Origin: Acinetobacter phage vB_AbaP_Alexa
Sequence record: MT375042.1
Strand: one strand, 5' to 3'
Length of the DNA stretch: 40,237 nucleotides
Part shown: in pieces, positions 103 to 39,765 of the stretch
Layout of the letters: each line of letters opens with the position of its first letter
How positions within the stretch are numbered: position 1 is the first letter of the stretch
Translations under genes and position numbers: made by a program
Notes under the pieces: model-generated
What the model saw: only the letters and a program-made list of their open reading frames with translations
The model's database searches: none
Told to the model about the DNA's origin: nothing

Positions 103-1530
103 ATGGGTGTAATCTTACGCGACTACCAAGCCGCCATGATTGACGGCGCACGTTCTGCCATGCGCAACAGTCGGCGCGTGCTATTGCAGGCACCTACCGG
201 CGCAGGCAAAACGGCACTGGCATCATACATGACAGACGAGACGCAATCGCGTGACCGTTTGGTCTATTTCGTGTGCCACCGTGCGGAGCTTTTGACGCAG
301 ACTTCGGCCACGTTCCGCAAGTTCGGCATTGCACATTCGTTCATTGCCGCAGGCTTGCCATACGACTCGCGCTTAAAGGTTCAGATTTGCAGTATCGACA
401 CGCTTAAAAACCGCATGCATATCGTGCCGGAACCAAGCTTATGTATATGGGACGAATGCCACCACATTGTCGCCGCAGGCTGGGCCGCAGTGATGGACGC
501 ATGGGCGAAGGCGTTTCACATCGGACTGTCTGCAACGCCAATTAGAACGGACGGCAAAGGGCTTGACCATTTGTTCGACGACTTGGTTATGGGTCCAGCG
601 GTCGCGTGGTTGATTGAACGCGGGTACTTGTCCCCTTATCTGGCATTTATCCCGGCTGGCGGCATGGACGTCGGCGGTGTGCATACCAGAATGGGCGATT
701 TCGTCGGCAAGGAAATCGAAGCCAAAATCGACCGGCCAAAATTGGTCGGTGACATAATCCAGCACTGGCGCAAGCATGCCGGTGATTTGCTGTCTATCGC
801 CTTCGCGCCTTCGCTCGATTTTTCCATGTACATGGTGGACCAGTTCAATGCGGCAGGCATCCCGGCGGCACACTTGGACGGCAACACGGATAAAGGCGAA
901 CGCAAAAAGATCATTCAGCGATTTGCGGACGGTGAAATCCGCGTCCTTTGGAACCGGTTTTTATTCGGTGAAGGCTTGGACCTTGCAGCTATCGCACAAA
1001 AAGACGTTACGATTGATTGTGTGATTGATGCAGCGCCTACGCAATCGCTGGCACTGGCAATGCAGCGCTGGGGCCGTGCGCTTCGACCGGGTGAAGGCAA
1101 GACGGCGATATTGCTAGATCATGCCGGCAACATGCTACGCCACGGCTTCCCAGACGACGAACGCGAATGGGCGCTTGAAGGCAGCGAAAAGCAAGGGCGT
1201 GGTTCGACTGGTACAGTTCAGCCGCCGATTATCTGTGGTGATTGCTACAACGCCATTAAGCGTCCAGCACCGCCAGCATGTCCGCACTGCGGCAAGGCAT
1301 TGAAGCCAGAAGCCAAACCGTTGGAAGTTGCAGACGGTGAACTCGTGGCTGCGAATGACAACGAAAAAGCGGCAGTACGCGCAAAATTGAAACAAGAGGA
1401 ACGCGAAGCGAAAACGCTTAGCGAATTGGTCGCGTTGGCACAGAAGCGCGGATATAAAAATCCGATGCACTGGGCACAGCGTAAATTTGGCGGCAGTAAA
1501 TGGCGTCAGGAAGCAGCAAAGAAAGGGTAG
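103..1530 (+). CDS. Phage-type SF2 (DEAD/DEAH-like) DNA helicase with a C-terminal zinc ribbon
   Basis: Walker A motif LLQAPTGAGKT, motif II DECHH, and helicase C-terminal motifs (QRWGRALR). A C-terminal Cys4 ribbon reads CGDCYN...CPHCGK. Confidence 0.8.
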   Translation: MGVILRDYQAAMIDGARSAMRNSRRVLLQAPTGAGKTALASYMTDETQSRDRLVYFVCHRAELLTQTSATFRKFGIAHSFIAAGLPYDSRLKVQICSIDTLKNRMHIVPEPSLCIWDECHHIVAAGWAAVMDAWAKAFHIGLSATPIRTDGKGLDHLFDDLVMGPAVAWLIERGYLSPYLAFIPAGGMDVGGVHTRMGDFVGKEIEAKIDRPKLVGDIIQHWRKHAGDLLSIAFAPSLDFSMYMVDQFNAAGIPAAHLDGNTDKGERKKIIQRFADGEIRVLWNRFLFGEGLDLAAIAQKDVTIDCVIDAAPTQSLALAMQRWGRALRPGEGKTAILLDHAGNMLRHGFPDDEREWALEGSEKQGRGSTGTVQPPIICGDCYNAIKRPAPPACPHCGKALKPEAKPLEVADGELVAANDNEKAAVRAKLKQEEREAKTLSELVALAQKRGYKNPMHWAQRKFGGSKWRQEAAKKG

Positions 1531-6774: not shown

Positions 6775-7150
6775 CGACTTGTGGCCCGCCGCTGTTAAAC
6801 TGTACGAAAGCGTAAAGTATTTTATTGCTGGTGCAATAGGAGCTAGTATTGTGGCTTATTATCTTCGAGATAAGTTAAATACGAAAACTGAATTTGTTAT
6901 ATTCGTTCTATCGGGTGCATTCATTGCGCATTACCTAACGCAATTGACTGTTTTTGTCATCGGTCGTTTTGGCTGGGCACTTGAGACGTCGAATATTGGT
7001 TCTATCGGTTTTCTACTTGGTGCGTTCGGTGGATTGATCTTTCAACAAATCGTTAGTTACATCGTATCGGGCGCTTGGAAAGAAATTTCATTCCGTAAAT
7101 ACATTATCGAAGCGATTAAAGACGCTTGGAATAGTAAGGGTAAAAAGTAA
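6764..7150 (+). CDS. Holin-like membrane protein (3 predicted TM helices)
   Basis: Hydrophobic segments FIAGAIGASIVAYYL, FVIFVLSGAFIAHYL and IGFLLGAFGGLIF, with a charged C-terminus. It lies immediately upstream of the endolysin, and the stop overlaps the lysozyme start. Confidence 0.6.
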   Translation: MQIDDLWPAAVKLYESVKYFIAGAIGASIVAYYLRDKLNTKTEFVIFVLSGAFIAHYLTQLTVFVIGRFGWALETSNIGSIGFLLGAFGGLIFQQIVSYIVSGAWKEISFRKYIIEAIKDAWNSKGKK

Positions 7151-7590
7151 TGCGCGAAAATATTATCCGTTCATTGCGTGGCGAGGAAGGCGAAGTCCTA
7201 CACGAATATAAAGATCATTTGGGCTATTCGACGATTGGTATTGGCCGATTGATTGATAAGCGCAAAGGCGGCGGCATCACATCGGATGAAGCGGCTTATT
7301 TGCTTGGCAATGACGTCGACAAGGTTATCGACCAGCTTAATAAGCGCCTTCCTTGGTGGAGTAAGCTAGACGAAGCACGACGCGGCGTTCTGGTGAATAT
7401 GGCGTTTCAAATGGGCATTGACGGCTTGCTAGGGTTCAAGAACACCTTAGCGATGATTCAGGCCGGCAATTATGAATCCGCAGCACGTGGGATGCTTCAA
7501 TCTAAATGGGCGCAGCAAACGCCTAGCCGTGCAAAGCGAATGGCTGAACAAATGCGTTCCGGCCAATGGCAATATAAGCCGGGGTTCTAA
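7150..7590 (+). CDS. Endolysin, GH24 (T4/lambda-type) lysozyme
   Basis: The N-terminal catalytic E...D...T pattern is visible in EGEVLHEYKDHLGYSTIGIG, followed by the GH24 core. Confidence 0.85.
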   Translation: MRENIIRSLRGEEGEVLHEYKDHLGYSTIGIGRLIDKRKGGGITSDEAAYLLGNDVDKVIDQLNKRLPWWSKLDEARRGVLVNMAFQMGIDGLLGFKNTLAMIQAGNYESAARGMLQSKWAQQTPSRAKRMAEQMRSGQWQYKPGF

Positions 7591-8081
7591 TGAATTACGT
7601 CAAGATGATTGGTTATGCATTTGCCCTAGCGTTAATCGCTGGGGTTCTGCATTTCACGTACACGGCTGGTTATGACAAATCGGAACGTGTTTGGCTGGAT
7701 AAGTACACGACCGAACTTGGCAAGCTGAATGACCAGCTTATCGCATCACAGCGAAAAGAACGTGCAGCCGTGGAAAAGCAAGAACAGATCGAAGCCGATT
7801 TATTGGCTAAACAGAAGGAGCAGGCAGCGAATGCGAACGCTATTATTAACGACCTTCGCGCTGGTAATGTCCGGTTGCGCGACCAGTTCAAAATTAAGCA
7901 GTGCGCAAGTGTGTCCGGTACTACCGGCAGCGCCGGCGGCAGTGATGCAGCCAGTACAGGCGGACTTTCAGAAGCGGATGTCCGATTTCTTGTTTCAGAA
8001 GCCAGCAGAGCCGACCAGCTTGCAGAGCAATTAATAGCAGCACAACAGGTCATCACGAATGACCGTGTTGTGTGTCAGTGA
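7590..8081 (+). CDS. i-spanin (Rz-like)
   Basis: An N-terminal TM helix IGYAFALALIAGVLHF followed by a long coiled-coil periplasmic domain. It sits right after the endolysin. Confidence 0.75.
   Translation: MNYVKMIGYAFALALIAGVLHFTYTAGYDKSERVWLDKYTTELGKLNDQLIASQRKERAAVEKQEQIEADLLAKQKEQAANANAIINDLRAGNVRLRDQFKIKQCASVSGTTGSAGGSDAASTGGLSEADVRFLVSEASRADQLAEQLIAAQQVITNDRVVCQ
7831..8034 (+). CDS. o-spanin (Rz1-like lipoprotein) embedded in the +1 frame of the i-spanin gene
   Basis: MRTLLLTTFALVMSGCATSS is a lipoprotein signal with a lipobox Cys. It is followed by a proline-rich periplasmic segment and lies wholly inside the Rz-like gene. Confidence 0.7.
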   Translation: MRTLLLTTFALVMSGCATSSKLSSAQVCPVLPAAPAAVMQPVQADFQKRMSDFLFQKPAEPTSLQSN

Positions 8082-8227
8082 TTCATAACTTTTAGGAATA
8101 GGTTAGACATGGTTAGAGCAGCGGAAGGATGTGACTTTGCGGTAGCAGATGGCTACGGCATCGGTGACGTTCAATATAAGTATATGATTTCGTTGAATAA
8201 AATTAATGTTCTTCAAGGTACTTCCGA

Positions 8228-8239
8228 GGGCGGCACCCT
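8228..8239. other. Candidate cosN (cohesive-end site) GGGCGGCACCCT
   Basis: It matches lambda cosN GGGCGGCGACCT at 10 of 12 positions. The flank CGCGGCTTTCGCG resembles lambda CGCGGGTTTTCGC. It sits between Rz/Rz1 and the Nu1-like TerS, exactly as in lambda. Confidence 0.55.
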
Positions 8240-8324
8240 TGCGGGGCACAAAGCGCCGCGGCTTTCGCGTTGTGCATGCATTCCAAAAAGTTATTAAACA
8301 ACTACATTCGGGCAAAAAATTAGT

Positions 8325-8861
8325 ATGGCAGTTGGTACAGGAACAAAGGGGCAGATCGTAAACAGGACGGGGCTTTCGGACATTTTCGGTGTAGCTCTAA
8401 ACACTATCGACGCTTGGGTCAAAAAAGGGTGCCCAGTTGTTCAAAAAGGCGGTGGACGCGGCCAAGAATGGAAGTTCAACACCGCCGACGTTGGGAAGTG
8501 GTTGCGCGCCGATGCAGCCGCCGAAGCCAAGGGCACCAAAGATGCCAGCGTTGACGAACTGAACCGACGCAAGGCGCAGGCTTCAACCGAACTTGTCGAA
8601 CTGGAACTTGCGAAGGCAAAGGCGGAAGTCGCGCCGATTGATCAGGTGATGCGCGCCGTATCGAGAGCGTTTGCAGAGGTTCGCGCTGGAATGCGGAACA
8701 TTCCCGGTCGTACCGTTTCCCAGCTTATTGGTGAAACAGACGAGCGCCGTTTTAAGGCTGTCTTGCTTTCCGAAATTGACGAAGTTTTGAAGTCGCTGGC
8801 CGACGCATCATTGCTTGATGACTATGGCGACGAGGATGCGAAAGAAGATGCCGACGAATAG
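8325..8861 (+). CDS. Terminase small subunit, lambda Nu1-like
   Basis: LSDIFGVALNTIDAWVKKGCPVVQKGGGRGQEWKFNTADVGKWL aligns with lambda Nu1 LADIFGASIRTIQNWQEQGMPVLRGGGKGNEVLYDSAAVIKWY. Confidence 0.85.
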   Translation: MAVGTGTKGQIVNRTGLSDIFGVALNTIDAWVKKGCPVVQKGGGRGQEWKFNTADVGKWLRADAAAEAKGTKDASVDELNRRKAQASTELVELELAKAKAEVAPIDQVMRAVSRAFAEVRAGMRNIPGRTVSQLIGETDERRFKAVLLSEIDEVLKSLADASLLDDYGDEDAKEDADE

Positions 8862-10881
8862 TATTTTTAGCAATCTGGAAGGCATCGAACAGGCAATCCG
8901 ACGCGCACAGCGGCACCTACTTCCACCGCCAGACATGAAGCCGTCAGAGTGGGCACAAGAACACATACGCATACCAGCGGGGAACGCTGTTCCCGGTCCT
9001 TTGCGATTGGACAATGCGCCATACCAGCGCGAACCAATGGACATGCTGGTAAACCCGGATTGCTACCGCGTTACCCTTATGTGGGGCGCACAGGTCGGCA
9101 AAACGCTTCTGGCGTTGTGTGTTCAGGCTTATTGCATTGGTGCCGAACCGTGCAGCCAAATGATGATGCAGCCAAGCCAAGACGACTTGCGCACATGGCT
9201 GGAAACGAAATTCAATCCACTAGCGGAAGAATGCGAACCGGTAGCAAACTCGATTGCAAAACCGCGTGGCCGCGACGGTGTGAATAACCAGAAAATGAAA
9301 TCCTATCCGGGCGGCTTCATGATGTTCGCTTGGTCGGGTTCACCGAAAACCATGCGCGGTCGTTCTGCCCCTAAGATCGTATGCGATGAAGTCGACGGCT
9401 ACGAAAGAACCAGCGAAGGGCACCCGGTCGGGTTGTTGTGGCAGCGTTCCGCTACCTTTGGCGACCAACGGTTTTTGCTGGAAATCAGCACGCCAACGCT
9501 GAAAGATGAATCGTATATCGAAAAAGCTTACGAGATGGGCGACCAGCGCCATTTTTATGTTTGCTGTCCGCACTGTGACGACCACGTAACGCTTAGCTGG
9601 GAAAATGTTCACTGGGAAGGACAGCGCGAAACGGATGACGAAAACCTAGCGGCCATTGACGAGCAAAAGCCAGATACGGCGCACATTCGTTGCCCGTCGT
9701 GCGGTTCCAAGTGGAACGATGGAGAACGCGTTGCGGCAATCCGACAAGCTGAAAGCAAGGGCGCAGGCTGGAAGGCGTCAAAACCTTTCGACGGACACGC
9801 CAGCTATCACTTAAACGAGTTATATAGCACCTTCCGAAAGGTGCCGGCGATTGTCCGCGACTACTTGGACAAGCTAAAAACGGACGACCTACAGACGTTT
9901 ACAAATGTCAGTTTGGCGCGAACTTGGGAGGAAAAAGGCGAGAAAGTCGACCCAGATAGCCTAATGGCACGCCGTGAAGAATACGCAGCACAAGTTCCGG
10001 CAGGCGGGGTTTACCTAACGGCCGGTATCGACATGCAAAACGACCGCTTGGAAGTCGAAATCGTGGCATGGGGCGAAGGGGACGAAAGTTGGTCAGTGGA
10101 TTACCGTGTCCTATGGGGCGATACATTAGGCGATGAAGTTTGGGACGACCTAGACGACGTCCTGGCCGAAAAGTTCATGCATGAAACTGGGGTTATGCTT
10201 CCAATATCCGCGGCGTGTCTAGATACGGGCGGTACAAGCGGACATACCCAGCGTGCGTATGAATACGCCAAGGGGAAAACCGGGCGTCGCCTATTCGCCA
10301 TTAAGGGTCAAGGCGGATGGGGCCGGCCAGTTGTGGCACAGCCGCAGCGCAAGCAATCCGGTAAGGCTAAGCGTAAAGTCGATTTGTTCATGGTGGGGAC
10401 CGATGAAACAAAATTAATCGTGACTAGACGACTAGGCGTGCCTAGTCCGGGGCCGGGTTACTGCCACTTTCCAGAAGATCGCGACGAAGAATTTTTTAAG
10501 CAATTGACCGCTGAAAAACTAATCGTTCATTACGTGAAAGGGCACCCAGTTCGCCAGTGGACCAAGCCAGACAAGGCACGTAACGAAGCGCTGGACTGCC
10601 GTGTCTATGCGACCGCAGCACTAAAAATCATGCAGCCGCCATTGAAGCGTATTTCAGAGCGTTTAAACGGGATAAAACCGCGTGCAGTGGCCGAACCAGT
10701 GAAAGAACCGACCCCGGTGCAGCCAGTGCAACAGACCGCACCAGTTCAGCCGCAAAAGCCGGCAAACGATAACGACGTCATCATGATTCGTAAGAAAAAA
10801 GCGCAGGATGAAAGCAAACCGACGCTTGGGCATAATGACCCTATTAAGAAAAAGCGAATTTTTGGAAACAGGAAACGATGA
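8815..10881 (+). CDS. Terminase large subunit, lambda gpA-like
   Basis: ARTWEEKGEKVDPD...VYLTAGIDMQNDRLEVEIVAWG and RNEALDCRVYATAALKI align with lambda gpA TWEAKIGERPDAE...AYLTAGIDSQLDRYEMRVWGWG and RNEALDCFVYALAALRI. A zinc ribbon CPHC...CPSC is present. Confidence 0.9.
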   Translation: MMTMATRMRKKMPTNSIFSNLEGIEQAIRRAQRHLLPPPDMKPSEWAQEHIRIPAGNAVPGPLRLDNAPYQREPMDMLVNPDCYRVTLMWGAQVGKTLLALCVQAYCIGAEPCSQMMMQPSQDDLRTWLETKFNPLAEECEPVANSIAKPRGRDGVNNQKMKSYPGGFMMFAWSGSPKTMRGRSAPKIVCDEVDGYERTSEGHPVGLLWQRSATFGDQRFLLEISTPTLKDESYIEKAYEMGDQRHFYVCCPHCDDHVTLSWENVHWEGQRETDDENLAAIDEQKPDTAHIRCPSCGSKWNDGERVAAIRQAESKGAGWKASKPFDGHASYHLNELYSTFRKVPAIVRDYLDKLKTDDLQTFTNVSLARTWEEKGEKVDPDSLMARREEYAAQVPAGGVYLTAGIDMQNDRLEVEIVAWGEGDESWSVDYRVLWGDTLGDEVWDDLDDVLAEKFMHETGVMLPISAACLDTGGTSGHTQRAYEYAKGKTGRRLFAIKGQGGWGRPVVAQPQRKQSGKAKRKVDLFMVGTDETKLIVTRRLGVPSPGPGYCHFPEDRDEEFFKQLTAEKLIVHYVKGHPVRQWTKPDKARNEALDCRVYATAALKIMQPPLKRISERLNGIKPRAVAEPVKEPTPVQPVQQTAPVQPQKPANDNDVIMIRKKKAQDESKPTLGHNDPIKKKRIFGNRKR

Positions 10882-11424: not shown

Positions 11425-13032
11425 ATGTTTGGACTATTTGACCGGGGCGATGTGCCGAATACGGCACCGATTCCAGTTGACCAATTGCCGGCACAGGAAG
11501 CGGAAGCAGTCACGCAAGCGCCGAAGATGCGCAAGCTATGGCGCAACATGACCCGCCATTTTCGCGCGGGGCAGACGGACCGATTAACAACCAGCTGGGG
11601 AACTTTCCCGGTAACTGCCGATAGCATTATCGAAAGATACCAGCGTCCGCTTGTGGCACGCTCCCGCGAACAGGCAGCAAACAACGACTATGCTCGTGCA
11701 TTCCTTCGCATGTGCCGTCAAAACATTGTCGGGCCGCAAGGCGTTATGCTGCAAGCACAGGCAAAGACCGCAGGCGGCAAGATCGACACAGCGGCAAACG
11801 ATGCAATCGAAGTGGCTTGGTTGGCATGGAGCAATAAGAAAAATGCAGACGTGCGCGGTGTGCGTTCGATGCGTGAAATTGAAAACTCATGCGTAACCAG
11901 TGCAGCCAAAGACGGCGAATTTTTCGTCCGTGTGATTTATGGTGCCGATGCTGGGCCATGGGGGTTCTCATTACAGACCTTGGATGCGCAACGCTGTCCG
12001 GTTGACTTACACGAAAAGCTACGCGGTGGCGGATTCATCCGTCAGGGGGTTGAGTTCAATAAGTACGGTCGACCGGTCGCGTATTATTTTGACTCAACCG
12101 ACGATACAGAAACGGAATACCGGTTCGGCGGCCGAAATTTTATTCGCGTCCCAGCGGATGACATTATTCACGGATTCTTAGAGGATATGACCGGGCAAAA
12201 GCGCGGCTTGCCGTGGATGGCTACTTCGCTATTTCGCATGCGTCAAATTTCAGAATTTGAAGATGCCAGCGTCGTCAATGCGCGCGTCGGTGCCAACAAA
12301 ATGGGATTTATCCAGTGGAAAGAAGGAAGAGGACCAGAGTTCGACGAAGATTCAGACGAAATCATTATCGAAAGCCAAGCCGGTGAATTTCCAGTTTTGC
12401 CAGAAGGCGCAGAACTTAAGGAATGGGCACCGAACTACCCGTCTGGTGAATTTATCCCGTTCTATAAATCAATGTTGCGCAGCATGGCCGCAGGCATGGG
12501 GGTTCTTTACAACAACCTTGCCAGCGACTTGGAAGGCGTGAATTTTAGTTCAATTCGCCAAGGTACACTAGACGAGCGCGAACACTGGAAAGAATTGCAA
12601 CAGTGGTTGATTGAATCCCTAATCGAACCGGTGTTCACGCGCTGGCTTGAATATTCCTTGCTTGCTGGGAAGATCAAAAACGCGCGTGGCCTACCGCTGA
12701 AAGCGGAAGCAATCGAACGCTATAGCTCCGTTTCATGGCAACCACGTCGCTGGGCTTGGATTGACCCAAGTGCCGATATTGCAGCGGCGGAAAAGTCAAA
12801 GAACAACATGCTTACAAGTCCGGGCCGCATCATCCGTGAACAAGGTTTAGACCCTACGACCGTATGGCGAGAAACAGCACGAGACGTCAAAGCGATGATT
12901 GACGAGTACGTGGCGCAAGGCATTGACGAAGAAACCGCCAAGAATTTGGTTCTTATCAGCATGGGCCAAAAACCAACAAACCCGGTCGGACGACCAACAC
13001 AGGAAAAACAGAATGAGAACCAAGCGACTTGA
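11425..13032 (+). CDS. Portal protein (lambda gpB family)
   Basis: A 535-aa protein immediately after the TerL/W-like genes. Its size and position match lambda B. Confidence 0.75.
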   Translation: MFGLFDRGDVPNTAPIPVDQLPAQEAEAVTQAPKMRKLWRNMTRHFRAGQTDRLTTSWGTFPVTADSIIERYQRPLVARSREQAANNDYARAFLRMCRQNIVGPQGVMLQAQAKTAGGKIDTAANDAIEVAWLAWSNKKNADVRGVRSMREIENSCVTSAAKDGEFFVRVIYGADAGPWGFSLQTLDAQRCPVDLHEKLRGGGFIRQGVEFNKYGRPVAYYFDSTDDTETEYRFGGRNFIRVPADDIIHGFLEDMTGQKRGLPWMATSLFRMRQISEFEDASVVNARVGANKMGFIQWKEGRGPEFDEDSDEIIIESQAGEFPVLPEGAELKEWAPNYPSGEFIPFYKSMLRSMAAGMGVLYNNLASDLEGVNFSSIRQGTLDEREHWKELQQWLIESLIEPVFTRWLEYSLLAGKIKNARGLPLKAEAIERYSSVSWQPRRWAWIDPSADIAAAEKSKNNMLTSPGRIIREQGLDPTTVWRETARDVKAMIDEYVAQGIDEETAKNLVLISMGQKPTNPVGRPTQEKQNENQAT

Positions 13033-15019
13033 TTTAGCAATGGCACTTACTGGCGCATACTTCACACGTGAAGCCGGCAGCGGCAAGGCGTTGCCAGACT
13101 TCAACCGCGACGCACTAAAGCGCACGTTCCACGTGGAACGTTCAAGCGTGAATGATGACGACCGAACCGTCGAACTGTCATTTAGCAGTGAAGTGGAGGT
13201 CGAACGCTGGTTCGGTATCGAAGTGCTCTCGCACGAACCCGGTGCGATGCGAACCGACCGTCTGGAAAATGGCGGGGCGTTGCTGGTAAATCACGACTGG
13301 GACGACCAAGTCGGCGTTATTGAAAGCGTGCGCATTGACGCAGACCGTAAGGGCCGTGCCGTGGTGCGCTTTGGTCGTTCTGCGCGTGCCGACGAAATCT
13401 TCCAAGACGTAAAAGACGGCATCCGCAAGCTGGTAAGTGTCGGCTATCGCATTCTGGCGGCGAAAATTACAGAAACGCGCGACAATTACGATATTTACAC
13501 GATTACCGAATGGGAACCTTACGAAATTTCTATCGTGTCGGTTCCAGCGGATGCGACCGTCGGCGTTGGCCGTTCTGCGGAAAAAGCGCAGGATGAAACG
13601 AGTAATCCGCAAACCTATAATGACCCTATCCATAAACAGGAAAGAAACATGAAAGTAAAGATTTTGCGCGACGCATCGGGCAATCTTGTCCGTGCAGAAG
13701 TCGACGACAACGATGCAATTCTTAAAGTTCTTGAAGTGCTTGAAGAAGCAGGCGCGGACGTTCGTTCAGCGCAAACCGCTGGCCGCGACACTGAGCGCAA
13801 CCGCGTTCGCGCATTGACCGAAATGGGTGAACGTTACGGCGACACAGCGCTTGCAATGGAGTACATTAAAGACGGCAAGAGCGCCGAAGATTTGCAACGC
13901 GCATTGTTAGACAAGTTCAACGAACGCAGCAAAAAGCCGATTGCAGAACAGACGCGCAATGCCAATATCGGCATGAACGAAGATGAATTGCAACGCTTCT
14001 CACTTGCGCGCGCAATTCGTGCAATGCTTCCGGGCGCGACACAGGCCGAACGTGATGCCGCTAAATTCGAGTTTGAATGCAGCGAAGAAGCACAGAAGCA
14101 CTACAAGCGCGAAGCTAAAGGCCTTCTAATCCCTATGGACGTCCTGAACCGTGCGTTCAACGCAGGCGGTGCAGCAAATACACCAGTAGGTGCAACGAGT
14201 GGTCAAAACTTGGTTGCTACCGACTTCCGTGCTGACGCATTTATCGAAATGTTACGCAAGCGTACAACCATTATGCGCCTTGCAACCACAATGGGCGGCT
14301 TGGTCGGTAACGTGGAAATCCCGAAACAGACTGGCGCAGTAGCGGCGTACTGGCTTGGGGAAGGTCAAGACGCGACAGAAGGCACGCCGGTAATTGGTCA
14401 AATCGGATTAACTCCGCATACCGTGGGCGCGTACACTGATATTACCCGTCGTTTGCTTATCCAAAGCACACCAGACGCGGAACGCATTGTGTGGAACGAC
14501 CTTGGTAATGCGATTGCACAAGCGATTGACGTTGCGGGGTATTACGGTTCTGGAACAGGTAATGAACCGAAAGGCCTTAAAAACTACAGCGGCATTAACG
14601 CGGTGGATTTTGCAGCGGCTAACCCAACGTTCGCTGAGCTTGTGGCAATGGAAACCGCTATTGCGACCGACAACGCCGACGTAAACAGCATGGCTTACGT
14701 TATGAATGCGGCAATGCGTGGTCACGCGAAAACCACGTCTAAGTTTGCAGGCGGAACGGACCAAGGCACAATTTGGGAACCGGGCAACACTGTAAACGGC
14801 TACCGTACAGAAATCACGAACCAGATTACAGCCGGTGACGTGTTCTTCGGTAACTTCGCAGACTTCCTTATCGGCCTTTGGGGTGGCTTGGATATTACCG
14901 TCGACCCTTACAGCTTGTCGAAATCTGGCGGCTTGCGCATCGTTGCGTTCCAAGACGTAGACTTCGCGGTCCGTCGTGAAGAATCGTTCTGCTACGGTTC
15001 TGCAACAGTTACCCCTTAA
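13013..15019 (+). CDS. Fused prohead protease (HK97/S78 family), scaffold-like linker and HK97-fold major capsid protein
   Basis: The N-terminal domain shows S78 motifs (LLVNHDWDDQVG, EISIVSVPADATV). The middle is a charged helical linker. The C-terminus is a capsid domain (LIPMDVL...GATSGQNL...DITVDPYS). ATG at 13013 follows AGGAAAAACAGA. Confidence 0.75.
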   Translation: MRTKRLDLAMALTGAYFTREAGSGKALPDFNRDALKRTFHVERSSVNDDDRTVELSFSSEVEVERWFGIEVLSHEPGAMRTDRLENGGALLVNHDWDDQVGVIESVRIDADRKGRAVVRFGRSARADEIFQDVKDGIRKLVSVGYRILAAKITETRDNYDIYTITEWEPYEISIVSVPADATVGVGRSAEKAQDETSNPQTYNDPIHKQERNMKVKILRDASGNLVRAEVDDNDAILKVLEVLEEAGADVRSAQTAGRDTERNRVRALTEMGERYGDTALAMEYIKDGKSAEDLQRALLDKFNERSKKPIAEQTRNANIGMNEDELQRFSLARAIRAMLPGATQAERDAAKFEFECSEEAQKHYKREAKGLLIPMDVLNRAFNAGGAANTPVGATSGQNLVATDFRADAFIEMLRKRTTIMRLATTMGGLVGNVEIPKQTGAVAAYWLGEGQDATEGTPVIGQIGLTPHTVGAYTDITRRLLIQSTPDAERIVWNDLGNAIAQAIDVAGYYGSGTGNEPKGLKNYSGINAVDFAAANPTFAELVAMETAIATDNADVNSMAYVMNAAMRGHAKTTSKFAGGTDQGTIWEPGNTVNGYRTEITNQITAGDVFFGNFADFLIGLWGGLDITVDPYSLSKSGGLRIVAFQDVDFAVRREESFCYGSATVTP

Positions 15020-33601: not shown

Positions 33602-34795
33602 ATGCTGACAGACGCACAAATCCGCACGGCTATAAAATCGGTCGTCAATGAAACAGTCTTGAACGATGGCGGCAACGGTCGCGGCACCGGGGCGCTTAAA
33701 TTGGTCATCCGTCGCCTATCCGATGGCGGAACGTCTGCCGTATGGTTCGCCCATTGGAAAAAGAATGGACAGCGCACCAAGAAAGCGATTGGCCGCTATC
33801 CGGACTTGAACGCGAAACAGGCACGCGCCGAATTTAATGCGAACCATAGCGGCCAGTCTGTAATTACGTTTAAACGTAATGAACGACCGACAATCGAAAA
33901 AATGTTCAATGGTTACATTGAATCAATGAGAGCCAAGAACCGCGCGTCCGCCGATGAAGTCGAACGCGTGCTTAAAAAGGCGGCAAAGGAGTTCGGCATA
34001 AATCGCCTACCTTCCGATATTTCACACGCTGACATTGTAAATTTCATAGGCGGCTATTACGACCGTGGTTATCGTGGCGCAGCCGACAAAGCACGCGCCT
34101 ATCTGTCCGCCGCGTTCGGCTGGGCCGTGAAGGCTGCGAACGACTACACACAAAAGACCCGTTACGACTGGGGCATCAAACATAACCCGGTGACGGACAT
34201 ACCGAAAGACACCGAAGCCAGCACGCTGCGCAACCAGACACTAACCCCGGACGAAATCCGCGACGTCTGGAAGTCTGAAAAATGGACCATAGAAGTTCAT
34301 GCATGCGTGCAATTGATTTTAGCGACCGGCCAGCGTGTCGAAGAATGTTTGCGGCTGCATGGTGACGAGTTGGACCTAGACGCCGCGTTATGGCACATGC
34401 CAGCGCATAAAACGAAAGGCCGAAGCCGTCCGCATACAATCCCCCTACCCGCTGTCATTATCCCTATTCTGCGCGAATTGGTGGCGCTACACGGCTATGG
34501 TCCATTATTCCCCGGTCGGACTGGTTCCAAGCAAAAGTATATCGGTCATCGTGCCGTCAATCGTGCGCTGAAAAAGAATGTACCCGAAGGCATCCAAGCA
34601 CGTGACTTGCGCCGTACATGGAAAAGCCGCGCTGGTGAAATTGGTATTCCCAAGGAAGTGCGCGACCTTATCCAGCAACACACGAACGGCGATACCGGGT
34701 CGAAGCATTACGACCGTGGCGACTATGTGCCAATGATGCGCGAAGCAATGAATAAATATGGTGATTGGTTATTGACGGTTATAAATAAAAAGTAA
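33602..34795 (+). CDS. int: Tyrosine integrase (P4-type, with an N-terminal DUF4102-like arm-binding domain)
   Basis: The N-terminus has GALKLVIRRLSDGGTSAVWFAHWK. The catalytic region has LATGQRVEE (Arg), HTIPLP, HRAVNR, RDLRRTWKS and HTNGDTGSKHYDRGDY (His...Tyr). Confidence 0.9.
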   Translation: MLTDAQIRTAIKSVVNETVLNDGGNGRGTGALKLVIRRLSDGGTSAVWFAHWKKNGQRTKKAIGRYPDLNAKQARAEFNANHSGQSVITFKRNERPTIEKMFNGYIESMRAKNRASADEVERVLKKAAKEFGINRLPSDISHADIVNFIGGYYDRGYRGAADKARAYLSAAFGWAVKAANDYTQKTRYDWGIKHNPVTDIPKDTEASTLRNQTLTPDEIRDVWKSEKWTIEVHACVQLILATGQRVEECLRLHGDELDLDAALWHMPAHKTKGRSRPHTIPLPAVIIPILRELVALHGYGPLFPGRTGSKQKYIGHRAVNRALKKNVPEGIQARDLRRTWKSRAGEIGIPKEVRDLIQQHTNGDTGSKHYDRGDYVPMMREAMNKYGDWLLTVINKK

Positions 34796-35344: not shown

Positions 35345-35530
35345 TTCTTCTAGTTCTGATATTGCTATCGCTAGTTCAAATATAAGAAGTACGCCTATAA
35401 TTCCACCAAACACAAACGATTTAACACTAAGTCCGAGAAGTGACACAAATACGATTTGTTGGGAAATATAGAACAAAAAACCAAACCCCAAATACAGCGA
35501 ATTAAAACGAATTACTTTTAATATTTTCAT
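35330..35530 (-). CDS. Small membrane protein (2 predicted TM helices)
   Basis: A 66-aa hydrophobic ORF, the last gene of the leftward operon. Confidence 0.4.
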   Translation of the reverse strand: MKILKVIRFNSLYLGFGFLFYISQQIVFVSLLGLSVKSFVFGGIIGVLLIFELAIAISELEEQNPH

Positions 35531-36228
35531 TACTCATTATCTCCTGAACCGTCTGCATAACCCATTTTCGCGCCGTGTTCCGGGCAGTGCGGGAAGCCTT
35601 TTTCGTCAATCCATTTCTGGGACATGCGAACCAAAAAGCCGCATTCTTCGCAGTCGACCTTTACAAGGCGGGTCGTCTGTTTCTTCGGTTTAGTGGTTAG
35701 GGTTTTTCCGCCGCTGGTGGCAACTTCTTCGCCTAGACCTTCCAGCATTTCGCCAATGGTTTGCGCTTCGCTATCGTCCAGAATGAATTTAGGCATACCG
35801 ACCACTAAGCGCGCGTGCGGCAGTGGTCCGACTTGTTCGATTAGCGGGTCACACCACGCATTAAATTCGTCCGTTGGTACGGATGCAGTAAACGGCTTAC
35901 GCAAACCCATTAACTTGGCAACCTTCACAAAGTCACCTTTATGCCCATGCTCAAAACCGACCGCGGTGTGTATCAATTCATGACACAGGATGCAGGCGGC
36001 CATTTGCGGATTATCTTCTGTAATCGAAATAATGATTTCGTATGTCTTGTCGCGCGATGCATTCGGGGACCAGCATTCGCCATTTGCACGGCTTTTCTGT
36101 CCGTATGATGTAAAACCGAATGTCACGCGATATTTAGGCAACGGGTAGCCGATTTCTTCAAATTTTGGTGCCATTAGTTTGGCTATGTCATTTAGCCATG
36201 TTTCACGATTCATAAAGATATTACTCAA
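35530..36228 (-). CDS. SprT-like zinc metallopeptidase domain protein
   Basis: HELIHTAVGFEHGH is an HExxH motif. A C-terminal Cys ribbon reads CEECGF...CPEHG. It lies adjacent to ssb, as is common in phages. Confidence 0.6.
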   Translation of the reverse strand: MSNIFMNRETWLNDIAKLMAPKFEEIGYPLPKYRVTFGFTSYGQKSRANGECWSPNASRDKTYEIIISITEDNPQMAACILCHELIHTAVGFEHGHKGDFVKVAKLMGLRKPFTASVPTDEFNAWCDPLIEQVGPLPHARLVVGMPKFILDDSEAQTIGEMLEGLGEEVATSGGKTLTTKPKKQTTRLVKVDCEECGFLVRMSQKWIDEKGFPHCPEHGAKMGYADGSGDNE

Positions 36229-36302
36229 CGTTTAAACGGTTCACAAATAATAACGCAAAATAATAGAGCGCATAAAGCGCCCTACTATTGGAATTACCGA
36301 TA

Positions 36303-36767
36303 CTAGAAAGGCAGGTCATCGTCTGGTTCGTCAAAAGTGCGCAGTGGTGCGCCACCGTCCATTTTTGGCGCTGGCTTAGGTTGTCCGTAGCCTTGTTGCT
36401 GCGGCTGGCCTTGTTGCTGGTAATTACTATCGCCTTTGTTATCCAGCAATTGCAGATTATCCGCACGGATTTCCGTTGTGTAGCGTTCTTGGCCGTTCTG
36501 GTCCGTCCATTTACGTGTACGCAATGAACCGTCAATGTAGACCTTTGAACCCTTACGCAAATATTGTTGTGCGATTTCACCAAGGCGGTTGTTCGCTACA
36601 ATGCGATGCCATTCCGTTTGTTCTTTACGTTCCCCGGTGTTCTTGTCCGTCCACGCTTCGCTAGTCGCAATGCTGAACTGGCACATACTGCCACCGTTAG
36701 GAAATGTTTTGCTTTCCGGGTCACGGCCAAGTGTTCCGACTAAAATTACTTTGTTTACGCCACGCAT
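36303..36767 (-). CDS. ssb: Single-stranded DNA-binding protein
   Basis: An OB-fold N-terminus ([18 protein letters not shown]...WHRIV), a Gly/Gln-rich linker and an acidic tail ending DDDLPF. Confidence 0.9.
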
Positions 36768-36770
36768 AAA

Positions 36771-37271
36771 TCAACCTTCTAAGTGTTCAAAAACTTCTTT
36801 TAAATTGGTGCTATTGATAACATAATGGCCGCAACGAGTTACGCGACACAGTCCACCAACAATATTGACCGTAACCATGCCGAAATTTTTAGATTCCCAA
36901 GTGAATTGGCTTACTGTTTCCGCTTGGTGTTTAAATTGTTCAAACGCTTCATGGTGCGCACGCGCTTGGTTTTCATCCGGCTGCGGGTCCGCGTTATCGT
37001 TCGCCGCTTCAAGCGTGATAATGCCACCAGCGATATAACAGATTGCGCCTAGCAGTTCGTGGACCGCTTGTTCTGGTGGCATGTTCTGCGATTCAACGAT
37101 TTTTTTAATCGCTTGGCCATGTGAGAATCCGACGCCGACCATTCGATTGACTTGCTGCATTGGTTGTTCGTGGAACGGCAAATCGTTTGCATGGCGTTCC
37201 TTTCCTTTGCCTTCGCTGGCTTGCTTAAAAGCACGCGCAAGCACGTCGTCTAACTTTTCATACCCTTTCAT
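36771..37271 (-). CDS. Hypothetical protein
   Basis: A 166-aa ORF in the early operon. No domain was confidently recognised. Confidence 0.45.
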   Translation of the reverse strand: MKGYEKLDDVLARAFKQASEGKGKERHANDLPFHEQPMQQVNRMVGVGFSHGQAIKKIVESQNMPPEQAVHELLGAICYIAGGIITLEAANDNADPQPDENQARAHHEAFEQFKHQAETVSQFTWESKNFGMVTVNIVGGLCRVTRCGHYVINSTNLKEVFEHLEG

Positions 37272-37481
37272 TTATCGACCCTCATACGTCTGGTATTGGT
37301 GCGCACAGTGTGAGCTACAGAATAATTTACCTTCCGCCACGTCATCTGCACAAAGCGGGTTGTAACAAGTGCCGTTCGGCTTTAGTCGGGGCGTAGCTTT
37401 GCTACGCTCCAACTGGCTTTCAATTTGTTTTTGCAAGCGTTCTTGCTGAATTTCCGAACTTATATCCGCATCATCCGCCAT
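37272..37481 (-). CDS. Small Cys4 zinc-finger protein (TraR/DksA-like)
   Basis: CYNPLC...CSSHC. The start was taken at the internal Met (MADDADISS) to limit overlap with the upstream gene. Confidence 0.4.
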   Translation of the reverse strand: MADDADISSEIQQERLQKQIESQLERSKATPRLKPNGTCYNPLCADDVAEGKLFCSSHCAHQYQTYEGR

Positions 37482-37683
37482 TCTTGGTGTTCTCGTAATC
37501 AATAATATCCGATTCACGGTAGCGGACCTTCCCGCCGATTTTCGTGTATTTCGGCCCCTTGCCTTTGTTTCGCCAGTTCGCCAGCGTGCCGACTACTACA
37601 GTGCCGCCCCAGCGCTTGACGAGTTCGTCAGGCGTCAAAAAAACTTCCGGTTTATCCGTTTGCTGTGTTGTCATTGCCTTCAC
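37471..37683 (-). CDS. Excisionase-family / AlpA-like HTH DNA-binding protein
   Basis: LTPDELVKRW...VGTLANWRNKGKGPKYTKIGGKVRYRESDI matches the Xis-family winged-HTH pattern. Confidence 0.55.
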   Translation of the reverse strand: MKAMTTQQTDKPEVFLTPDELVKRWGGTVVVGTLANWRNKGKGPKYTKIGGKVRYRESDIIDYENTKNGG

Positions 37684-38647
37684 TCAAAATTTGTTCGTTA
37701 ATATCACTTGCAGCGGTACGCTTGGCGTCGTCGAACGCTTTTGCAGCCGCCTTAATGTCGTACGGGCATTGGTTGCCAAACTTGGCGCGTACAGTGTCAG
37801 GCAATCCGTTCCACGCTTGTTGTAAGCCTTTTAGGCCTTGTTCAGCGTGTGAACGCAGAATGTTGCGCGCCTTTTCAACCTCTTGGTCGACTTGACCAGC
37901 ACCCATAATCCAATTGCGTAATGCGTAACCTTCCTTTGCGCCTAAATATCCAGCGTGGAAGTCTTGGCCGCATGCACCGAAAATTGCTTCGAGTTCCTTT
38001 GGTGCCTTCATAACTTGGCGCTGGCGTCCAGAATCCCACAGCATCATTGATGCCGTCATTTCAAACATGAAATTCTTTTCTTGGACCGGCATAACACCCA
38101 AAGAACGGTATTGCGTCTTGCCTTGCGCGTCCTTGTACATTTCGACTTTTTCACGCGCACGAACGCAAACAATGACATGCATATCGGATTGCAAAAGCGC
38201 GTTCATGAAACGCTTATGTTCAGCCTTCGCCTTATTCCAAGCGCCGACCTTACGCGTGTTTCCAGTCGCCGGGTCAATAGTGGCGATTTCTTCACATCCG
38301 CCGGTGCCTTCCCATTCGTGGGTAATGCTGTCTACGACAAGGACTTCAATGCCAGCCGCTTGGAACTGGTGAATAGCGTCTATGTAGCGCTGCGGACTGA
38401 ATGGCGCGTCTAGGTCGCCTATCCAAAACTCTTGGACTTGTCCGTCCTTGTTCTTGATAGTGTCCGCGTACAATGAACCACGGCGGTTTTCCGTATCGAG
38501 TAGGCCGATTTTTGAAGCATCGCCACCAGTCAAACCGTATGCAATTTGCAGCGCTGTAAATGTCTTGCCACCGCCAGAAATACCAGCCAACGCCAACACA
38601 ATGCGCGCGCCTTCGCGCTTAGCCTTACGAATATTAATAACACTCAT
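37652..38647 (-). CDS. Sak4-like RecA-fold ATPase (phage recombination protein)
   Basis: Walker A motif LAGISGGGKTFTAL and Walker B motif VLVVDSITH. It is paired with a PD-(D/E)XK exonuclease and an SSB. Confidence 0.6.
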   Translation of the reverse strand: MSVINIRKAKREGARIVLALAGISGGGKTFTALQIAYGLTGGDASKIGLLDTENRRGSLYADTIKNKDGQVQEFWIGDLDAPFSPQRYIDAIHQFQAAGIEVLVVDSITHEWEGTGGCEEIATIDPATGNTRKVGAWNKAKAEHKRFMNALLQSDMHVIVCVRAREKVEMYKDAQGKTQYRSLGVMPVQEKNFMFEMTASMMLWDSGRQRQVMKAPKELEAIFGACGQDFHAGYLGAKEGYALRNWIMGAGQVDQEVEKARNILRSHAEQGLKGLQQAWNGLPDTVRAKFGNQCPYDIKAAAKAFDDAKRTAASDINEQILSEGNDNTANG

Positions 38648-38649
38648 AC

Positions 38650-39765
38650 TTAAATAACTTCCGCTTTTTTAAGACCCCATGCAGGGATTGAAATAATTTG
38701 GACCTTGTTGTCGTAACCCGGCCATTTGTCCGTTTCTAAACAAGACGCATATTCGTTTAGCGACTGGCGGTACTCTTTCAGACCAGCCGCGCGGCTTTCA
38801 TCGTCCAGCACGTAAACCGCAACGCCTTTCGACGTTCCATTCACGACGCATGCATCCTTTTCAACCGCTAAAAATACGAACTGCGGTTCGTTGCCGGTGG
38901 CGATTTTGATGCCGTCGCGGTACATCACGTCTTGTACGTGGTAACGCCAGTTATAGATTGATTTTGCAAAGCCTTCCGAGCTTGCGTCGATACACGTTTT
39001 AAGGTCGACCACGATATTGCTTTGTGTCCACCAGTCCGGACGGCAGCGGCATAGAACACCAGTTTTAGGGTCGTTCCAGTAGACGGATTGTTCCGCCTTA
39101 CCGGGTAGCTTCATCAAATAGCTTGCCGCAGGGTGCGCCATGACAGCGTCGCGCATTGCGTGCAGTTGGTCCCATTGGTCCGTCGTTAGGACTGTTTTGC
39201 CTTCAATCTTGGTAGTGTGGTCGGCTTTAATTTCAGACCACAAAGTAAACGAATGATCGTTCGCGCGAAGGATTGCTGCTAGTTCATTCATGCTTCCAGT
39301 CGTGGAAAGCAAGCCAGTGCGACCCTTGTTCATTTCCTCCAAAATGTACTTGAGTTCGTCAGCTTTCGATTTCTCCAAGTCCGCCGGCACGTAATGCGAA
39401 GTGTTATCGCAAATGCGATTGATTAATTCAGGCTTTGACCCAGTCAATGACAGCTTAGGCAAGCGCGTTTCATTCAATACGCGCACCATTTCAACCAGCT
39501 TTTCGCGGTCGTCGATTGCGTCCGGGTATTCATCCTTGCGCAGTTCGGAAACGTATGTCGCTGCAAACACTTCCGGTTCAAGCAACAACGTATGAAACGC
39601 AGTGCCAAACGCTTGCGCTGCGGTCGGTTCGTTGTCGTTGGCAGCATTCACCGCATGGTAATAATGCGCTGGTGATTGAGCGATTAAGTCCAAGCCGCTT
39701 TTAGAAATACCCGGCCCCTTATGGTAATCATGGTTCGTTATATTGTCGTAAATACCCGGTTCCAC
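38650..39765 (-). CDS. PD-(D/E)XK-superfamily exonuclease (DUF3799-like)
   Basis: IVVDLKTC and conserved acidic residues. This is the typical partner of Sak4-like ATPases. Confidence 0.55.
   Translation of the reverse strand: MEPGIYDNITNHDYHKGPGISKSGLDLIAQSPAHYYHAVNAANDNEPTAAQAFGTAFHTLLLEPEVFAATYVSELRKDEYPDAIDDREKLVEMVRVLNETRLPKLSLTGSKPELINRICDNTSHYVPADLEKSKADELKYILEEMNKGRTGLLSTTGSMNELAAILRANDHSFTLWSEIKADHTTKIEGKTVLTTDQWDQLHAMRDAVMAHPAASYLMKLPGKAEQSVYWNDPKTGVLCRCRPDWWTQSNIVVDLKTCIDASSEGFAKSIYNWRYHVQDVMYRDGIKIATGNEPQFVFLAVEKDACVVNGTSKGVAVYVLDDESRAAGLKEYRQSLNEYASCLETDKWPGYDNKVQIISIPAWGLKKAEVI

Follow-up and report, generated by a model that had tools for sequence, protein, structure and literature searches.

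A predicted lambda-type cos site with probable 13-nt cohesive ends in a Jilinvirus-like phage genome

Which nucleotides form the cohesive ends of the phage genome deposited as Acinetobacter phage vB_AbaP_Alexa (MT375042.1)? The stretch of DNA analysed here, called the window below, is 40,237 nucleotides (nt) long, and the question arises in the 243-nt gap that separates its Rz-type lysis gene from the gene of a Nu1-like small terminase subunit (TerS). An earlier note on this DNA had recognized in the gap a lambda-like cohesive-end site (cos) and had proposed as its cosN a 12-mer, GGGCGGCACCCT (8228-8239), expected to yield 12-nt 5' ends like those of lambda with two base changes. Comparison with related phages led us to another register. 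We consider it likely that positions 8216-8324 are a lambda-type cos of a Jilinvirus-like temperate myovirus with the 13-nt 5' ends GGGCACAAAGCGC, the 12-mer being part of a spacer.

A conserved core in front of the terminase genes

In the relatives of the window phage, a core of about 70 nt is conserved in the gap between Rz and TerS, with divergent flanks. We built an nhmmer profile from the cos regions of ten isolated relatives, leaving out the window and lambda. This profile matched the window once, at 8216-8287, without gaps and with an E-value of 1.2e-8 (the runner-up in the window had E = 1). Together with the gene context, the match supported a cos between Rz/Rz1 and the Nu1-like TerS, as the earlier note had stated, and we are very confident that the cos is located at 8216-8278. 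Applied to other loci, the profile also recovered a site shortly before TerS and on the TerS strand; this held for 13 of 20 loci in prophages of alpha-, beta- and gammaproteobacteria and for 14 of the 24 loci from IMG/VR. A window coordinate corresponds to a profile position plus 8212.

The information profile, computed over 27 unique related sites (to which the counts below refer), exhibited four conserved blocks: AGGTACTTCC/GGGTCCTTCC at 8216-8225, TGCGGGG at 8240-8246, CGC at 8257-8259 and TyTGCGTG at 8271-8278. The spacer and the interior of the overhang, which lie between these blocks, were variable. This corresponds to the pattern described for lambda-like cos sites, in which the 7-base-pair (bp) cosQ and the CG flanking both nicks are conserved and bp 7-12 of the overhang are free (PMC4669245). 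The local order in the window is AGGTACTTCC GAGGGCGGCACCCT TGCG / GGGCACAAAGCGC / CGCGGCTTTCGCG TTGTGCATGC, slashes here and below marking predicted nicks or ends.

The first block is a cosQ-like box, AGGTACTTCC (8216-8225, + strand), with the heptamer AGGTACT at 8216-8222. From the start of the box to the predicted left nick there are 28 nt, and MAFFT aligned the box with that of lambda. G8217, T8222 and C8224 were invariant, and positions 1 and 5 of the heptamer were G and C in 17 of the 27 sites, as in GGGTCCT. The lambda cosQ is GGGTCCT (bp 48473-48479), which fits the comparison of lambda with N15, where ACGGGTCCTTTCCGG is common to both and the spacer next to it is divergent. The left nick context TGCG (8240-8243, + strand) is part of the second block, and the top strand would be nicked between 8243 and 8244 (nick N1, GCG/GGG). 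Here G8243-G8245 were invariant and 8241-8242 were conserved in 26 sites.

The predicted 13-nt 5' cohesive end GGGCACAAAGCGC, the cosN proper (8244-8256, + strand), occupies positions 32-44 of the hidden Markov model (HMM) in ungapped register. It has CG flanks on both sides, with GCG and CGC symmetric about 8250, and the GCG/CGC frame was complementary in 96% of the 27 sites. Both the CG-flanked nicks and the two-fold symmetry expected of such a site (PMC4669245) are present at 8244-8256 and absent at 8228-8239. The right flank CGCGGCTTTCGCG (8257-8269, + strand) comes next, with the bottom-strand nick N2 predicted opposite 8256/8257; C8257 was near-invariant, and G8258 and C8259 were invariant. 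This flank aligned with lambda bp 13-25, CGCGGGTTTTCGC, which abuts the lambda cohesive end. CGCGGCTTTCGCG stands directly after the 13-mer, just as its lambda counterpart stands directly after cosN. The earlier note had correctly paired CGCGGCTTTCGCG with CGCGGGTTTTCGC and had described it as following the 12-mer; 17 nt (8240-8256) lie between the two.

Further to the right, the conserved box TGTGCATG (8271-8278, + strand; family consensus TyTGCGTG) lies 14-21 nt from N2, and T8271, T8273, G8274 and G8278 were invariant in it. Judging from its conservation, this box is the best candidate for the recognition element of TerS, through its Nu1-like winged helix-turn-helix, in a short cosB, and it could equally be an I2-like segment. 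The rest of the cosB is A/T-rich (8279-8324, + strand) and extends up to the start of TerS, with the direct repeats CAAAAAGTTATTA (8284-8296) and CAAAAAATTAGTA (8313-8325). Two elements that the earlier note had suggested looking for did not turn up: no match with at most one mismatch to the consensus WATCAANNNNTTR of the integration host factor (IHF) was found in 8240-8324, and no R-like family of TerS-binding repeats in 8257-8324, where the repeat search gave only short two-copy families. Over the whole window, matches to the IHF consensus occurred at chance level (40 observed, 41.5 expected). With a single conserved box and neither R repeats nor the IHF consensus, this cosB resembles a "simple" cosB more than that of lambda.

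We also observed a 10-nt inverted repeat, GCACAAAGCG (8246-8255) and CGCGTTGTGC (8266-8275), the arms of which are 90% complementary, 10 nt apart and straddle the predicted N2. It ties the interior of the overhang to the conserved box, was not seen in the relatives compared by eye and may be due to chance.

As for the 12-mer GGGCGGCACCCT (8228-8239, + strand), it occurs once in the window and differs from the lambda cosN GGGCGGCGACCT (NC_001416) at positions 8 and 9, exactly as reported in the earlier note. For a window of this size and composition, 2.9 matches to the lambda cosN with at most two mismatches are expected by chance, and at least one was present in 94 of 100 shuffles. The match has thus no significance by itself, and only its location upstream of TerS had lent it weight. 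The columns of the 12-mer carry little information (0.1-1.3 bits) and correspond to a spacer that is G-rich and then C-rich. GGGCGGC spacers nearly identical to it are present in PPpW-3 (GGGCGGCATATGG) and KA2-1 (GGGCGGCCACCCC), the ends of which map 16-17 nt further right. In addition, the flanks of the cut would be GA/ and /TG, and the CG dinucleotides of lambda-like nicks are missing. From its position in the alignment, the 12-mer is very probably a chance look-alike within the poorly conserved cosQ-cosN spacer and not a cohesive end.

The G-run and C-run of this spacer, including the 12-mer, look palindromic in many relatives, and we considered them as a possible dyad. Their complementarity equalled the column-shuffle expectation at three centres; in the aligned sites, we take the pattern to be compositional, with no covariation to support a dyad. 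The window also contains a perfect 9-nt inverted repeat, GGCACCCTT (8232-8240) and AAGGGTGCC (8425-8433), with arms 184 nt apart, the second one inside the TerS coding region.

DNA ends of related phages and the choice of the nick frame

The records of many linear relatives start 66-89 nt upstream of TerS, and their ends can be read directly on the columns of the cos alignment. PPpW-3 carries the 13-nt terminal repeat GGGGCATAGACTC at both ends of its record. The records of MQ-4 and KA2-1 start at N1 with the homologous 13-mer and contain a second copy near their right end, with the cosQ-spacer-GCG context in front of it and non-collinear sequence behind it. The FoX3 record stops exactly after its 13-mer, at N2. 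The ends of the FoX phages were determined with PhageTerm and verified by Sanger primer walking, according to their paper, which does not give the end sequences. The announcement of Mica reports a 13-bp overhang obtained with PhageTerm, and the Mica cos core includes GGGGCATTGGTCC, identical to the Jilinvirus 13-mer. Among metagenomic sequences, the IMG/VR contigs L058 and L061, which come from different samples, start exactly at the position homologous to N1, and their siblings L060 and L063 continue across this position (...CCCTGCG/GGTATTCGGACT...). Left ends at N1, right ends at N2 and a 13-mer present at both are what filled-in 5' overhangs would produce, and the N15 record, in which a 5' sticky end is annotated, follows the same convention. 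At the position of the relatives that is homologous to the 12-mer, neither boundary coincides with the end of any record or contig, except for an unmapped break in the Arya record. The papers on Murka, ECOO78, HeidiAbel and the Ethiopian Jilinvirus contain nothing on termini, and one publication dealing with a distant relative states that no cos could be found (PMC7924643).

Two of these records deserve a comment of their own. In MQ-4 (ON853583) and KA2-1 (PQ571296), the last 55-60 nt or so, after the right-end 13-mer, differ from the continuation at the left end. These terminal stretches probably arose as chimeras during assembly, at a physical end of the DNA, and the deposited right ends thus look wrong. 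The record of Burkholderia phage Mica (NC_054148) has its origin inside the TerS gene (...ATGGGCGTGAAATTGAACCGTTCGGGACTC/GCCGAACAC...), and its annotated TerS (55-483) seems to be N-terminally truncated; its cos core lies about 90 nt before the end of the record and is unannotated in the record stretch examined.

The 13-nt reading rests on the ungapped register, on the ends of relatives falling on the same two columns, on the Mica overhang and on the CG flanks. We find a cohesive end at 8244-8256 (to within 2 nt) highly probable, as against one at 8228-8239; we are somewhat less assured, while still leaning clearly to this side, that it is a 5' overhang of exactly 13 nt. In the mechanism that we propose, the Nu1-like TerS would bind the short cosB, with TGTGCATG (8271-8278) as candidate element, and would position a symmetric pair of gpA-like large terminase subunits (TerL) on cosN. 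TerL would nick the top strand at 8243/8244 and the bottom strand opposite 8256/8257, in both cases at GCG/G and 13 nt apart, yielding the 13-nt 5' cohesive ends GGGCACAAAGCGC. From the TerS side, packaging would then progress to the right over the head genes and the tail genes until the next cos is reached; the terminal cut made there would require, as it does in lambda, the cosQ-like box that lies on the Rz side.

Several observations weigh against this reading. In the window itself, the heptamer AGGTACT differs from the lambda GGGTCCT at two of seven positions, four G follow TGC where most relatives have five (with unchanged spacing between the conserved blocks), and the TyTGCGTG box has an A at 8276 where 25 of the 27 sites have a G. 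The family profile did not detect the lambda cos with nhmmer at E <= 10, and the link to lambda thus rests on MAFFT, short motifs and protein homology. Exact-pattern scans for the cos sequence in viral and metagenome contigs gave no match, nor did a lookup of the exact TerS protein in the protein collection. We infer from the record only that the terminal repeat of PPpW-3 represents measured cohesive ends. The end annotated in Mano from PhageTerm is 7 nt long and lies inside the 13-mer, the terminal repeat of Murka has 15 nt and is offset by +1/+3, and the FoX1 record stops just before CG, two bases further along, which implies about 15 nt. The CG-rich region would also permit frames of 10 or 15 nt. 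The record of Enterobacter phage Arya (NC_031048) has its break (CCT/TGCG) 4 nt left of N1, and its announcement reports a terminal redundancy in the assembly and reads polymerase chain reaction (PCR) and restriction data as circular permutation.

Some of these points could indicate that the terminase acts on the same cosN region in another frame, with an overhang of 12 nt (8245-8256), 15 nt or about 7-10 nt, or with 3' polarity. MAFFT placed lambda cosQ, N1 and N2 on the same columns as those of the family, with lambda N1 at window 8244/8245, and a sister clade from IMG/VR (L057-L068) has a 12-nt lambda-like frame, GCG/GGTATTCGGACT/CGCGGG; the Murka repeat, the FoX1 spacing and the Mano annotation go in the same direction, as do the further CG dinucleotides at 8254 and 8259. 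We nevertheless regard such a frame as unlikely: starting at the cosQ box and up to the TyTGCGTG box, the window aligns with the 13-nt clade without any gap; a length of 13 nt is what four isolates and PhageTerm, in the case of Mica, agree on; and a 13-mer duplicated at both ends is consistent with a 5' overhang and not with a 3' overhang. In the sister clade we also noticed GGTTGATTGTTGT about 45 nt to the right of the nick, reminiscent of GAGGTTGTTGTTT at a similar distance in N15.

Cohesive ends formed by the 12-mer itself can hardly be believed any more. This proposal has for it an identity of 10 out of 12 with the lambda cosN, found in the right intergenic region and nowhere else in the window, and a right boundary that coincides with the break of the Arya record. 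That match is at the chance level given above and falls in spacer columns of low information, the ends of PPpW-3 and KA2-1 lie further right despite their near-identical spacers, the flanks GA and TG replace the conserved CG (PMC4669245), CGCGGCTTTCGCG would be 17 nt away from the cut instead of abutting it as in lambda, and the authors of Arya did not map its ends. The 12-nt 5' ends of the earlier note would give way to the 13-mer at 8244-8256 indicated by the register of the relatives.

The conserved element could also be a pac or regulatory site in a phage that packages by the headful mechanism, with circular permutation and no cohesive ends, as the Arya announcement would suggest and as might be thought from several relatives deposited as circular records. 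Terminases of the gpA/Nu1 type are the classic cos enzymes, and the window encodes one; Mano and Mica were called cos by PhageTerm, and headful packaging would not make several of the records and metagenomic contigs end at one and the same nucleotide, as they do. Moreover, ligated cos ends likewise give circular assemblies and PCR products spanning the junction. We thus consider headful packaging very improbable, and the packaging claim made for Arya probably needs revisiting, its complete conserved cos core being present.

If the 13-nt reading holds, several consequences follow. The genome would be annotated with its left end at about 8244 and not 8228, and with a 13-mer cohesive end distinct from those of lambda and of Jilinviruses. 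A single 72-nt profile finds the cos across a group of phages and prophages, and a cosQ-like box and CG-flanked nicks persist with terminases that are only about 29% identical to gpA. It is conceivable, although we put this forward only tentatively and with more doubt than trust, that we see in the window and in its relatives a lambda-type cos of minimal form, spread across phages of alpha-, beta- and gammaproteobacteria, in which the cosQ heptamer and the CG-flanked nicks are kept, the stagger is 13 nt (12 in the sister clade), and there is a single TyTGCGTG box and no IHF site. In that case, the AGGTACT heptamer, the unique 13-mer, the G-to-A change in the box and the inverted repeat across N2 would mark a separate packaging specificity, and the contrast between 12 and 13 nt could reveal how a gpA-type TerL sets the spacing of its nicks. 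For the study of this spacing, the family offers frames of 12 and of 13 nt as variants found in nature. The current understanding of cos packaging is unchanged.

Gene context and relatives of the window phage

Upstream of the cos, the endolysin gene (7150-7590) precedes that of the Rz-type i-spanin (7590-8081, + strand; Pfam Phage_lysis, E = 6e-10), the final gene ahead of the cos. An embedded o-spanin (Rz1) frame extends over 7729-8034, with a likely start at 7831, ahead of the lipobox LVMSGC. Downstream, TerS (8325-8861, + strand) matched Pfam Phage_Nu1 (E = 3e-10) with 28% identity to lambda Nu1, and TerL (8815-10881, + strand), of the gpA family with ATPase and endonuclease, matched GpA_ATPase (E = 8e-75) and GpA_nuclease (E = 6e-98), with 29% identity to lambda gpA (BLASTP, E = 2e-59). 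These domains and identities bear out the clear Nu1 and gpA homologues mentioned in the earlier note. The open reading frame (ORF) of TerL opens with TTG at 8815, and its real start is likely the ATG at 8848, as suggested by the sequence.

TerL is followed by a head-tail joining gene, a lambda-family portal and a protease-capsid fusion, and the tail genes are of P2 type (V, W, J, I, FI, FII, U, D). At 12899-15019, one ORF of 706 amino acids combines an S78 prohead protease domain with an HK97-fold major capsid domain, as in Jilinvirus. The head is thus not lambda-like throughout, the lambda-family part being limited to terminase and portal. The P2-type tail joined to a cos-packaging head is really present, as the earlier note had seen, but it does not make a notable mosaic: a lambda-type packaging module with a P2-type tail is an already known architecture of Jilinvirus/Iiscvirinae and related genera, and in the literature these relatives are described as myoviruses of small size in which P2-like tails are combined with lambda-like terminases.

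Two small ORFs, 8109-8297 (62 amino acids) and 8206-8361 (51 amino acids), overlap the cos core; the former, the only one of the two that was scanned, had no Pfam match. We regard both as probably spurious predictions, lying across a DNA site that is conserved. The Mica record likewise annotates a hypothetical protein across its cos region. A promoter and terminator scan of 7900-8500 gave nothing relevant except, where Rz ends, a weak hairpin.

A tyrosine integrase is encoded at 33602-34795 and has phage genes to either side, in the two end regions of the window (103-1530 and 35530-39765): on one side an exonuclease VIII-like gene, and on the other side genes for a helicase and a primase together with repressor-like genes. 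The window lacks a tRNA gene, whereas Arya and PPpW-3 carry tRNA-Arg beside int. Because phage genes flank the integrase on both sides and the tRNA is absent, the window looks like the non-integrated, nearly complete genome, of about 40 kb, of a temperate Jilinvirus-like phage, for which the searched collections contained no close relative.

The closest sequences were those of the Jilinvirus (Iiscvirinae) myoviruses ECO1230-10, ep3, ECOO78, PT1 and HeidiAbel and of Serratia phage MQ-4, with identities of about 75-76% to the closest phages, in the terminase genes only (megablast), and there was no match in E. coli genomes. The TerS search also recovered Arya, KA2-1, Mano, FoX1-5, Murka, PPpW-3, Persinger, phiRSP and Mica. 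TerS identity was 42-61% to the seven aligned TerS of Arya, ECO1230-10, KA2-1, MQ-4, Mano, PPpW-3 and FoX1, and 63-67% by tblastn, with HeidiAbel at the top. The window shares with Jilinvirus/Iiscvirinae the gene order, the TerS similarity, the lambda-type terminase and portal and the P2-type tail, a small genome (about 41-44 kb) being also characteristic of the group. On these sequence features we regard it as a relative of Jilinvirus/Iiscvirinae, which does not imply membership of the genus, for which the ICTV criterion is 70% whole-genome identity.

Comparison with known cos systems

Close counterparts of this locus are found in the Jilinvirus group, PPpW-3 and Mica, which share with the window the synteny of lysis genes, cos, TerS, TerL, head-tail joining gene, portal, protease-capsid fusion and P2-type tail, as well as the 72-nt cos core in ungapped register, with its GCG/N13/CGC frame and TyTGCGTG box. 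The 13-mers are different: GGGCACAAAGCGC of the window and GGGGCATTGGTCC of Jilinvirus, Mica and Arya have 5 of 13 positions in common. With phages P2 and 186 the window has in common the P2-type tail module. The ends of P2 are also 5' cohesive. However, P2 and 186 have a gpM/gpP terminase and 19-nt ends, whereas the terminase of the window is of the Nu1/gpA type and its cos follows that of lambda in position and sequence; the locus is thus not a P2-type cos.

As in lambda, the site lies immediately upstream of a Nu1-family TerS, itself followed by a gpA-family TerL. The order is also that of lambda, with a cosQ-like box, a spacer of about 20 nt, cosN and cosB, and with CG flanks at both nicks. 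The overhang opens with GGGC in both cases, and the right flank has the form CGCGG(G/C)TTT(T)CGC. The cosQ-like box AGGTACTTCC is the putative counterpart of GGGTCCTTTCC in lambda and N15, and starts 28 nt before N1 in the window and 30 nt before it in lambda. Written side by side, the lambda site reads GGGTCCTTTCC...GGTTACG / GGGCGGCGACCT / CGCGGGTTTTCGC and that of N15 GGGTCCTTTCC...TGTTACG / GGGCGGCGTCCG / CGCAGATTCTCGC. In contrast to the 13 nt predicted here, the lambda overhang has 12 nt, and the two sequences are unrelated beyond GGGC; the heptamers are GGGTCCT and AGGTACT, respectively, and the proteins are only 28-29% identical. The lambda-like cohesive-end group (lambda, 21, phi80, N15 and Gifsy-1) is defined by 12-nt ends akin to GGGCGGCGACCT, especially in bp 1-6 (PMC4669245). 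The window would fall outside this group, homology giving the 13-nt GGGCACAAAGCGC with GGGC alone in common. The cosB of lambda contains the R3, R2 and R1 repeats and an IHF site, neither of which was found in that of the window.

The N15 cosB has a simpler architecture (PMC4669245), and in the features compared the window resembled N15, with its short cosB, its putative cosQ block and its CG-flanked nicks. N15 differs in having the 12-nt ends GGGCGGCGTCCG and in being a siphovirus with a linear-plasmid prophage and a different virion module. In the distance from N2 to the start of TerS, the window (68 nt) is close to N15 (76 nt), that of lambda being 178 nt.

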